A stretch of DNA of 61,848 nucleotides, filler included, from Hausera hauseri (lineage: Eukaryota), in the NCBI GenBank assembly GCA_046269625.1. It is 12 parts of 12 records of this genome, joined end to end, with 100 filler letters (N's around TTAATTAATTAA, not from the genome) between each part and the next. Parts side by side here need not be neighbours in the genome. Positions count along the whole stretch, not along the records: positions 47,460 to 51,700 come from JBJURY010680662.1; 11 more parts are not named here. One strand, written 5' to 3'. Below the pieces are notes generated by a model. It saw only the letters and a list, made by a program, of their open reading frames with translations. It ran no database searches and was not told where the DNA came from. The position numbers were made by a program, and so were the translations under genes. This document shows positions 49,110 to 51,700 of this stretch, piece by piece; the stretch's first letter is position 1, and each line of letters opens with the position of its first letter.

Positions 49110-50522
49110 TCAACTGGGGTTATCAGTCCCCAAGGTGTTCGGTATACGTCGCAGATCTATTCTTATCCAGGTATGTCTGCGACGTTTTCGTAAATACATA
49201 ATCATTTTTATGGCGAGTAATGTCATTACAACTACAGTCACAGGTACAATTGTGCATATTACTATAAACTCGAGTCTAGAGTGCGTATAAGTCGCGCGTC
49301 GGGATTTAAAGGTCGTGGTAAACTTACTAGTAACTCTGTTACGTAGATTTGGTATCTTTATTTCATTTCGCGTAATGGCCGTTAAGATTTTTGTCGATAT
49401 TACTTTATTGTTGTCATCAAATAATTGAAGAATGACCGTATATTGGGTATTGGGTGTCAGGGCCGCACATGGTACTATTAGATCATCAGGGGTTATGTCT
49501 ACCTTCACTACTACCTTATCTCGCAACTTGCAGATGAATTTTACTTTTATGAAGTCAAGATCTGGTTTTACTGACATTATTAATGCTGTCGGGGTAGTTG
49601 TAATCGTAACGTTTTCCCATATAGAACGCTTTTGTCGGTAATAGGACGCATATGGTCTAATTAAGACAGTTATGTCCCTCTCATTATTATTCGACGGGAA
49701 ATGCACAGATGGCTCCGTAACCCTAGATGGTTTCATGACTTCTCTGACCTTTTCATCATATTCAATTTGGTTCTTATACCGAATATACATCGTTGGTCCT
49801 TTTTTCTGTAATTTATTTTTGAATTTTCCGTATTCTTTTCGTGACAATACATATTTTACATCGTATATTTTGCCTCTCGTTACGTTACAACATACTTGTT
49901 GTTGCTCATATGTTATTTCGCATTTTAATAATCTTTGTCTGTCTCCTACTTCCTTTATAGATATTGTTATCCATCGGATGTATTCTAGTTCTATCATACT
50001 CACAACTTCAATGCAACTACGTCCACTCTTGAATCCCATTGATCTTATCCTTAATTGTTTGAGTACTATTTCGTCCAATAAAGTTTCATTCATTTCGAGT
50101 CGATTAGGAACTCATATGTATTTATTAAATTTGGTGTATAAACTGTGATAGTAGTCTCCTTTTCTTTTTATGAGCGTAAGGTATTCCACATGAGTCCCAG
50201 AGTTCTCTAACAAACATTGCGTTTCGTTTGTTGTTGGATGAAGTATGCAATCATACTGTCGCTCATTAGGGTTTCTCTTATAGTCATTTAACGGGATTAT
50301 TTGTATTCCTATCATATATTCACTGGGCATCCGTCTTGTGGTATACCAGATTGCACATTTTCGGCCTTTCAAGGAATAGGTTATATGATACTTTAAACTT
50401 TTTAGCATCAAATTCTCGTTTATAGCTGTTGCGTGTCGTACTTTAGCTCGTTCTATTTCTTGGTTGGTTAATTGACTCAAAACTTGTGGCAGTAGTATTA
50501 GTATTATCAATAAGAAATATTT
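49110..50522 (-). CDS. Env-position type I membrane protein: signal peptide, FN3-like beta domains, furin site, TM helix and basic tail (one internal TGA at 50112-50114)
   Basis: KYFLLIILILLPQVLSQ (50522-50472); N-glycosylation sequons (NET, NVT); RQKR|S (49637-49626); FN3 signature LTPNTQYTV (49460-49434); TM FIVICTIVPVTVVVMTLLAIKMIMYL followed by RKRRR. Confidence 0.7.
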
Positions 50523-51700
50523 CGTTGTTTCGTAGGATTTATAATCTGTGATTGGTTTGTCCTTGATACTTCTTACTATGTCTTGTTCATCTTGTCTAAG
50601 CTTACTTTCTTTGGCTGCTGGCTTGCATCTATTCACATGCACTTTAAATATGGTATTATTCCTCTTCAGACAAAGATTAGGTAAGTCTACTTTCTCTACT
50701 TCGTATGGTCCTTTATATGGCCTATCTAGTTTGGACGTCTTTCCTTTTTTGCTTAGTGGTGTATGCAACATCATCTTATCTCCTACTTTTATCTTGGGTT
50801 GCTTTGTCTTTTCGTCGTAATACCTCTTATAGGTGAATTTATAGTCTTTTTGGTTGTCCTTTACTATTTTATAAGCCAATTGTAAACGCTCCTGCATTAA
50901 TAATTTGTATTCCTCTACCTCCATTAAATGAGATATGGGCTTCACGTTAAAATCCAAATCAATAGGTAGTCTGGCATCCCTTAGATACATTAAATAAAAC
51001 GGTGTTTCCTTTGTAGCTTCATGTACGGATGTTCGATTTACGAATACACAAGCGTTGATGTATTCGTCCTAATCATCCAGTCGAGAGCTAACAACTGTTT
51101 GTAATTTACTTTTTAAATCGCCAATATATTTTTCAACCATTCCGTTGTTTTCTGGGTGCCCTGGTGTTGAGCGTAGCTTCAAAATCCGCATAATATCGTA
51201 TATGGCTTGCATTACGTTACCCGTAAGGTTAGACGCTTGATCTGTTAATAAAATCCTTGGGGCTCCATAGTTAAATACTATGTTTTCTACAAATTTTTCG
51301 GCAATCGTGTCTGCCTTCATATCTGCCATAGGTAATGCTACCACTCATTGAGTGAAGTAATCTATAAAAACCAAAATATATCTATTTCCGTTTCGTGTTA
51401 ATGGTAAAGGTTTTGTTATATCCATGGCTGTGAACTCAAACGGAGCTGGTGGGTTATTCCACACTTTGAGGGGGGCTTTAAATTTTGATCCAGTATTCTT
51501 GCGCGTGGCGCAAAGTTTACAACGATCGCACCATTCCTGTACATCCATTACTAAGGTGGGCCAAAAATACTTCCTTTTTAATTTGACTGTCGTCTTTCTT
51601 GCTGATTGGTGACCTCCTAATAGTCCATCATGATATTGGGTTAATAAAACAGTTCTGTTCTTTCCTGGTATTACTAAAGCTGGGCCATTTTGGTGGATAT
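50523..51700 (-). mobile_element. Ty3/Gypsy integrase (zinc finger, DDE core, GPY/F), 5' truncated by the contig end
   Basis: YHDGLLGGH...CKLC; FTAMDIT; YILVFIDYFTQ*; LLTDQASN; STPGHPENNGMVEK; KLDRPYKGPYEV...VHVNRCK. Both stops fall at conserved Trp positions. Confidence 0.95.

Follow-up and report, generated by a model that had tools for sequence, protein, structure and literature searches.

In-frame continuation of a Gypsy integrase into a predicted FN3-type membrane protein in a decayed, probably Burro-like element from Hausera hauseri

The window, i.e. the whole stretch of DNA analysed here (61,848 nucleotides from Hausera hauseri), is made up of short contigs chained by 11 N44-TTAATTAATTAA-N44 spacers, so that neighbours across a spacer are not linked. 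The element described below occupies a contig of its own (47460-51700; 4.2 kb), which is cut within the integrase; gag, protease, RT and LTRs are therefore not visible in this copy. On the minus strand, one frame (51698-49113) comprises 862 codons when translated with X at stops. The features of the contig are:

50625-51698, minus strand: Gypsy-type integrase with HHCC zinc finger, rve core and GPY (Pfam), cut at the contig start
51345-51347 and 51069-51071, minus strand: in-frame stops of the integrase (translation)
50703-50711, minus strand: GPY module of the integrase, residue 330 (translation)
50475-50522, minus strand: internal signal-peptide-like segment in frame with the integrase, residues 393-408 (hydropathy; equivalent segment in relatives)
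49779-50393, minus strand: two candidate beta-sandwich repeats with paired cysteines (single-sequence model: strands predicted, pLDDT <50)
50112-50114, minus strand: in-frame stop of the ectodomain, between these two candidate repeats (translation)
49626-49637, minus strand: furin-type RQKR site (RQKR and the S after the cut, residues 688-692), not conserved in relatives
49344-49631, minus strand: predicted FN3 domain, the membrane-proximal repeat (AlphaFold2, Foldseek, VIA, family HMM)
49209-49265, minus strand: transmembrane (TM) helix, residues 812-830 (mean Kyte-Doolittle 2.81 over 19 residues)
49110-49190, minus strand: RKRRR stop-transfer (residue 837), short cytoplasmic tail and stop (translation)
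47703-48974, minus strand: separate ORF, 423 aa from the first Met, with an ISG20/REX4-like DEDDh exonuclease fold (RNase_T clusters, profile, alignment)
47460-47702, minus strand: 3' non-coding end with a 43-nt tandem duplication (repeat search; no LTR shown)

Pfam matched the integrase with Integrase_H2C2 (E 5e-17) and rve (E 8e-10). The best solved structures were the Ty3 and foamy-virus integrases (Ty3 Gag-Pol at E 8e-19), and the HHCC, rve core and GPY/F module that define the Metaviridae (Ty3/Gypsy) are all present in the window copy. The order PR-RT-RH-IN is seen in relatives, the corresponding upstream part lying outside the window contig. An earlier note on this DNA had described the integrase as continuing without a stop through a signal peptide into an ectodomain. 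The frame is indeed free of stops from the GPY to the signal-like segment, in which cleavage after VLS is predicted, but stops interrupt it at codons 118 and 210, within the integrase, and at codon 529, within the ectodomain. The window copy is a relic, no longer functional, of a family with many copies. The ectodomain features listed in that note, namely a length of about 400 aa, sequons (four, at residues 491, 537, 605 and 696), the RQKR site, LTPNTQYTV, the TM helix and RKRRR, are all found in the integrase frame. A repeat search of the window and a self-BLAST of 16 loci revealed no paired LTRs, which may have been collapsed in contigs built from short reads. In one related locus (L004) a purine run and then TG follow the last ORF.

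Other contigs of the window carry further material. A GC-rich contig (13903-17943; 57-60%), probably bacterial, has a repetitive frame of 1,346 aa that is rich in Gly/Ser/Thr and without a Pfam match. Decayed fragments at 8733-11106 and 39448-42159 resemble, by eye, Polinton/adintovirus-type DNA polymerase B regions, one of the two with a weak endonuclease VII match. A single-exon 387-aa ORF (24482-25642, minus strand) resembles an invertebrate peptide/chemosensory GPCR by eye and has no Pfam match at E 0.01. Pieces of TTC21/IFT139 are interleaved with pieces of the ribonucleotide reductase large subunit at 19045-22459 (minus strand), both within one 405-aa ORF, and a dynein heavy-chain piece lies at 18045-18692.

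The FN3 character of the ectodomain, as put forward in the earlier note, could be substantiated for its last repeat, in which LTPNTQYTV is located. A family HMM built without the window sequence matches this repeat at E 2.5e-4 (10.0 bits, as against 6.5 for the best of 300 shuffles). Using an alignment of 14 family repeats that are 8-20% identical to the window repeat, AlphaFold2 yielded a model with pLDDT 79 and pTM 0.71. The best Foldseek rows for this model were FN3 domains (TM 0.54-0.71; E 3e-4 to 1e-3), and comparison with fibronectin by VIA gave Z 10.2 and rmsd 2.7 with 87 residues aligned. The 14-repeat family profile returned nine solved chains at E <=0.001, all of them fibronectin (E 5e-6) or CD45 (E 9e-4). 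The modelled repeat shows the seven-strand beta-sandwich of FN3 domains with L-x5-Y on the E-F-strand side. Pfam fn3 gave no match to the window repeat and weak matches in two of the 14 family members. An FN3 fold of the last repeat is supported by both structure prediction and profile homology. The two candidate repeats upstream showed no significant match to the family profile (hhalign E 0.39 and 0.43), and to them the FN3 assignment could not be extended. The whole ectodomain, folded as a single sequence, gave a poor model (pLDDT 37), with which structure searches returned weak FN3/Ig-like rows that carry no weight here. Searches with the ectodomain against 5.8 billion proteins gave no significant match among 2,972 candidates (258-823 aa only), and against 1.84 billion representative proteins there were 0 matches.

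The protein had also been called furin-cleavable. This applies to the window copy with its RQKR site; an R-x-K/R-R motif between signal and TM helix is present in 4/29 relatives and in none of them between two FN3-like repeats, and furin cleavage was rejected as a family feature. That the part following the site has no evident fusion peptide proved correct: neither a fusion peptide nor a coiled coil is evident there, no Pfam fusogen match was obtained on the window frame, and the part is predicted to fold as FN3 instead. The window tail is without the hydrophobic C-terminus that 24/25 relatives have, and without an S/T-x-V end.

An integrase search returned 22 longer proteins, the six closest being 43-48% identical. 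All six continue into a signal-like segment and beta-rich repeats, and five end in a TM helix and tail; the remaining 16 show no such continuation. Scanning for a pattern yielded 33 loci from metagenomes and 2 from genomes, of which L001-L014, L034 and L035 were analysed; the eight matches in viral contigs were all unrelated. At least one in-frame hydrophobic segment follows the integrase in 28/29 distinct relatives as compared to 0/20 other Gypsy integrases, and contigs from two public runs bridge the junction, so that the linkage first noted in one copy holds in others. Two segments at the set thresholds were found in 20 of the 29. In four others a weaker signal and a TM helix can be made out by eye; of the rest, two are truncated or interrupted, two have a short hydrophobic stretch at their end, and P0051 is without a segment. 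L007, L008 and L010, being cut or frame-broken, stand outside this count, although L008 and L010 still carry cassette sequence. The continuation of the integrase into a membrane protein is a clade trait, beyond chance and heritable.

Within this cassette, an FN3-like repeat occurs one to three times in 21/29 relatives, as scored by a profile trained on these relatives. An Ig domain replaces FN3 in P0121 and P0134 (Ig_3 E 1.5e-5 and 4e-8), and a Cys-rich domain does so in P0094 and P0102. Complete tails end in S/T-x-V/I/L in 17/25 cases, which may be read as a PDZ ligand or an ER-export signal; the last residue is hydrophobic in 24/25 and Val in 18.

Several further observations were made on the relatives. 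In L005 (4730-5370) and at the N-terminus of P0007, a further signal-FN3-TM cassette is found between fusogen and protease; it is homologous to the cassette after the integrase. Extra aspartyl-protease-like domains, often with altered catalytic motifs, are present between integrase and cassette in P0051, P0052, P0063, P0069, P0079, P0080, P0083, P0084, P0094 and P0109, with ankyrin repeats in addition in P0084 and P0109. A Y-x-L-R motif after the integrase, reminiscent of the foamy-virus chromatin-binding motif, was seen in 23/29 relatives vs 3/20 outgroup proteins and is absent in the window copy. The family members L034, L035 and P0111 are filed under bacterial names within bacterial MAGs, in which they most likely represent eukaryotic contaminants.

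The window stretch was found in four public runs from four studies, the contigs of which cover 30, 30, 28 and 29 of 30 bins. Since these contigs are mostly <95% identical to the window copy, they represent a multi-copy family. Not one of the listed contig pieces reaches across its full length. The junction of integrase and signal is crossed by individual contigs (X1 record 6, X4 record 31), as is that of tail and exonuclease (X2 record 13, X4 record 27). In each of the four runs, the contigs deviate from the window copy inside both integrase stop codons; the ectodomain stop is absent from the variation sample, which consists of the best-supported 40 of 1,543 differences and is non-random. The listed differences in the ectodomain/TM frame number 19, of which 12 are at third positions (p 0.007 vs one third) and 11 are silent (p 0.02 vs one third); in the integrase 4/9 listed differences from the same best 40 of 1,543 are silent. 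Because the sample is biased, the silent excess only hints at selection.

The separate ORF downstream resembles RNase_T clusters (0.91), and a profile made of it and six relatives matches ISG20L2 (E 5e-15) and ISG20 (E 2e-9). It is homologous to the downstream ORFs of 7/8 family loci with >1 kb of downstream DNA, at E-values of 3e-16 to 2e-4 computed within a small ORF set; the exception is the broken L010. The catalytic D-E-D-D/H residues are absent in the window ORF and present in 2/6 aligned relatives (L001, L005), so that the majority of members would seem to be pseudo-nucleases. That this protein binds RNA or serves as a decoy would be a guess. A RING-finger ORF lies between polyprotein and exonuclease ORF in L003 (2684-4135) and L011 (2055-3389).

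What precedes the integrase can be seen in the relatives, in which a class III (gB/chuvirus-type) fusogen is positioned between gag and protease within one ORF of 2,600-4,100 aa. L001 (3,703 aa), L005 (3,426) and L006 (3,184) are each a single ORF with the order Gag, ubiquitin-like stretches, class III fusogen, proteases, RT, RH, IN and cassette; Gag CCHC knuckles are seen in L001 and L006. In these three, the fusogen is a class III fusion glycoprotein of Monjiviricetes type (E 1e-83 to 1e-94), the range for PF24664 being E 1e-83 to 1e-105 in the 11 relatives scanned. It is present in 16/16 family ORFs with at least 1,393 aa upstream of RT, the 13 without it having at most 650 aa there. A search with the RT-RH-IN of L005 gave 670 long proteins. 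Among the 120 listed, 17 (two of them L001 and L006) are at least 50% identical over the full query; PF24664 is present in 15 of these 17 and was seen in none of the other 103 listed rows. Matches to ubiquitin (E 4e-5) and Rad60-SLD (E 0.0015) were obtained in P0034, and weak ones in L001 and L006. BCL2 had no Pfam match in the relatives; a GGW/GGL motif, such as BCL2-like domains have, occurs in 2/9. The L005 cassette could be aligned to 2/14 relatives (23-30% identity) as compared to 14/14 for its fusogen (33-57%), with RT-RH at 58-83%; judged by these alignments, the cassette is diverging far faster than the fusogen.

In a quick tree of 55 integrase rows, the window integrase, on a long end branch (1.19), groups inside the fusogen-bearing clade (SH-aLRT 93 and 95). 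It is 39-50% identical to elements with the fusogen layout and <=35% identical to others, with the exception of P0009 at 36%. The fragment very probably belongs to this clade. From its placement, the fusogen in the long relatives and the shared downstream ORF, we infer that the missing upstream part, which lies outside the contig, held a class III fusogen. The idea of the earlier note that the FN3 protein stands in for env finds no support, all 16 informative relatives having the upstream fusogen. Another contig of the window (4676-7423, minus strand) holds a further Gypsy element in an advanced state of decay, in which pieces of a class III env precede RT/RH and integrase (main env piece tblastn E 1e-6 to 1e-11; integrase about 31-34% identical to the family); hence, the assembly does hold env-before-pol elements.

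This layout has a precedent in Burro/GYPSM1, a planarian giant Gypsy. Its one ORF of 4,873 aa contains Gag, Ubi2/SUMO-like and BCL2-like parts and a mononegavirus-like env between gag and pol, as well as dUTPase-like, ankyrin and BIR motifs (PMC6431247, as far as the accessible text describes it). The relatives likewise have a giant ORF (up to 4,057 aa), CCHC Gag, ubiquitin/SUMO-like parts, env between gag and protease, PR-RT-RH-IN and, in some, ankyrin repeats. Unlike Burro as reviewed in the accessible part of PMC6431247, they carry a post-integrase FN3/Ig TM protein and a downstream DEDDh ORF; the word 'fibronectin' is absent from the text of that paper. By eye only, their fusogens resemble the Smed_errantivirus_1-6 ENV rows, with many shared motifs, in the part of the PMC13524379 supplement available. 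These six Schmidtea 'errantivirus' elements have 14.5-18 kb of coding DNA and, from size and host, presumably are Burro. That the lineage may be an undescribed one, as the earlier note suggested, is not supported. GAG-ENV-POL errantiviruses with HSV/gB-type ENV have hosts in Nematoda, Bryozoa and Platyhelminthes, and the relatives agree with them in a Ty3/gypsy pol and a class III fusogen upstream of it; the words fibronectin, immunoglobulin, exonuclease and accessory do not occur in the main text of PMC13524379.

An extra ORF with a DEDD exonuclease after pol is also known from the bdelloid elements Juno and Vesta, whose small TM ORFs were once taken for env (PMC5408684, in part). There the nuclease is DEDDy (RNase D-like) with intact residues in a separate ORF3, whereas the family nuclease is ISG20/REX4-like DEDDh and mostly degenerate, and the TM protein is in the integrase frame. 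Troyka (PMC12440569, in part) was considered and set aside as unrelated to the family layout. In the papers covered, no Gypsy integrase is described as being fused to an FN3/Ig-TM cassette; the Burro C-terminus may carry one. Large Bcl-2/ankyrin LTR elements have reportedly been described in a mussel. This description was not found in the accessible parts of 10.1101/696732, PMC9210306, PMC6796509, PMC6238403 and PMC9469890, and the accessible part of PMC8532177 gave no domain detail.

The window element is likely what remains, in decayed form, of the 3' end of a giant Gypsy (Metaviridae) of the Burro-like type. It would represent a known kind of element (Burro-like GAG-ENV-POL Gypsy) to which are added a second membrane protein, apparently not described before, and a pseudo-nuclease downstream, their position being conserved across the clade. 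An attachment or decoy role for the FN3 protein, as considered in the earlier note, is plausible. Our preferred reading, to which we assign a probability of about 0.5, is that the FN3-TM module is a second surface glycoprotein acting in attachment or cell contact, with fusion left to the upstream class III glycoprotein.

According to this model, the polyprotein would be threaded into the ER twice, in the order cytosolic Gag, signal 1, fusogen, TM 1, cytosolic PR-RT-RH-IN, signal 2, FN3 ectodomain, TM 2 and tail, which would leave Pol in the cytosol between two membrane anchors, and cleavage by signal peptidase would separate the FN3 protein from the integrase. Made one-to-one with Gag, Pol and fusogen, the protein would gather at the budding membrane, its ectodomain on a Thr-rich stalk binding a host surface partner and its S/T-x-V tail steering it to export or to cell junctions. 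It would thereby bring the particle or the producer cell against the target, upon which the fusogen would act. Two-glycoprotein entry is known from paramyxoviruses (RBP and F) and herpesviruses (gD and gB), and viral Ig/FN3 surface decoys exist. The likeness to such pairs, in which a variable beta-sandwich surface protein accompanies a conserved fusogen, is one of analogy only, with no sequence link, and we know of no pair of fusogen and attachment glycoprotein in an LTR element. Against the preferred reading counts the weak tie of the window ectodomain to the family repeat (E 2.5e-4, one domain). Moreover, class III fusogens of the chuvirus, rhabdovirus and baculovirus types work without a partner, so that an attachment protein is not required.

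The strongest competing explanation, in our view unlikely but deserving serious consideration, retains the element and the topology but takes the FN3/Ig protein to be displayed on the producer cell's surface and to modulate immunity or signalling there rather than to serve in entry. It would be a receptor mimic or decoy, possibly shed at the furin site in the window subfamily. The clade has other host-modulating cargo (ubiquitin/SUMO-like parts, ankyrin, RING and ISG20-like ORFs), as has Burro with its BCL2-like and BIR motifs (PMC6431247, accessible text). Cytokine receptors and CD45 are among the fold neighbours, and fast divergence with domain swapping fits a host arms race. However, the ectodomain is no closer to any one receptor than to generic FN3, being made in frame and in equal amounts with the structural proteins is what one would expect of a particle component, and the furin site is restricted to the 4/29 relatives mentioned above.

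A role mainly in assembly appears improbable. The signal and TM helix would then tether Pol to the membrane or sort the polyprotein, with the ectodomain as interchangeable filler, in keeping with the conservation of topology and C-terminal residue (24/25 hydrophobic, 18 Val) rather than of ectodomain sequence. Yet Pol is already tethered by the TM helix of the upstream fusogen, the repeats keep their cysteines and FN3 core, and L005 and P0007 carry the extra cassette copy before the protease. Slightly less probable again is that the window subfamily lost or never had the fusogen and uses the FN3 protein as its sole envelope protein. The window contig with no fusogen visible, the long branch and a furin site as in class I env genes would agree with this; it is opposed by the fusogen of all informative relatives and by the FN3-like fold after the furin site, where neither a fusion peptide nor a coiled coil can be recognised. 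The short, fragmented assembly and the three stops might raise the suspicion that a host receptor fragment was captured by chance or that the contig is mis-assembled, but this is largely refuted by the many copies in four runs (28-30 of 30 bins, junctions bridged) and by the same layout across the clade.

If the preferred reading of a second surface glycoprotein holds, it can be carried further, although the following joint claim is a tentative one and we would rate it below that reading. Burro-like Metaviridae would be enveloped reverse-transcribing viruses that make two glycoproteins from one polyprotein, namely a conserved fusogen of class III and an attachment protein, FN3 or Ig in type and swappable, whose PDZ-type tail accompanies it and which sets the cells that are entered. 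If true, an LTR element would divide the labour between two glycoproteins much as paramyxoviruses or herpesviruses do. On the usual view, it is by capturing a single fusogen that LTR elements acquire an extracellular phase. A fusogen accompanied by a fast-evolving, swappable FN3/Ig protein would show that retroelements can build multi-glycoprotein envelopes and that they take cell-surface recognition modules from their hosts. It would provide a handle on the choice of target cells by such elements and account for part of the unannotated half of Burro-type polyproteins. It is also a warning that an ORF with signal, furin site and TM helix following pol is not necessarily env.
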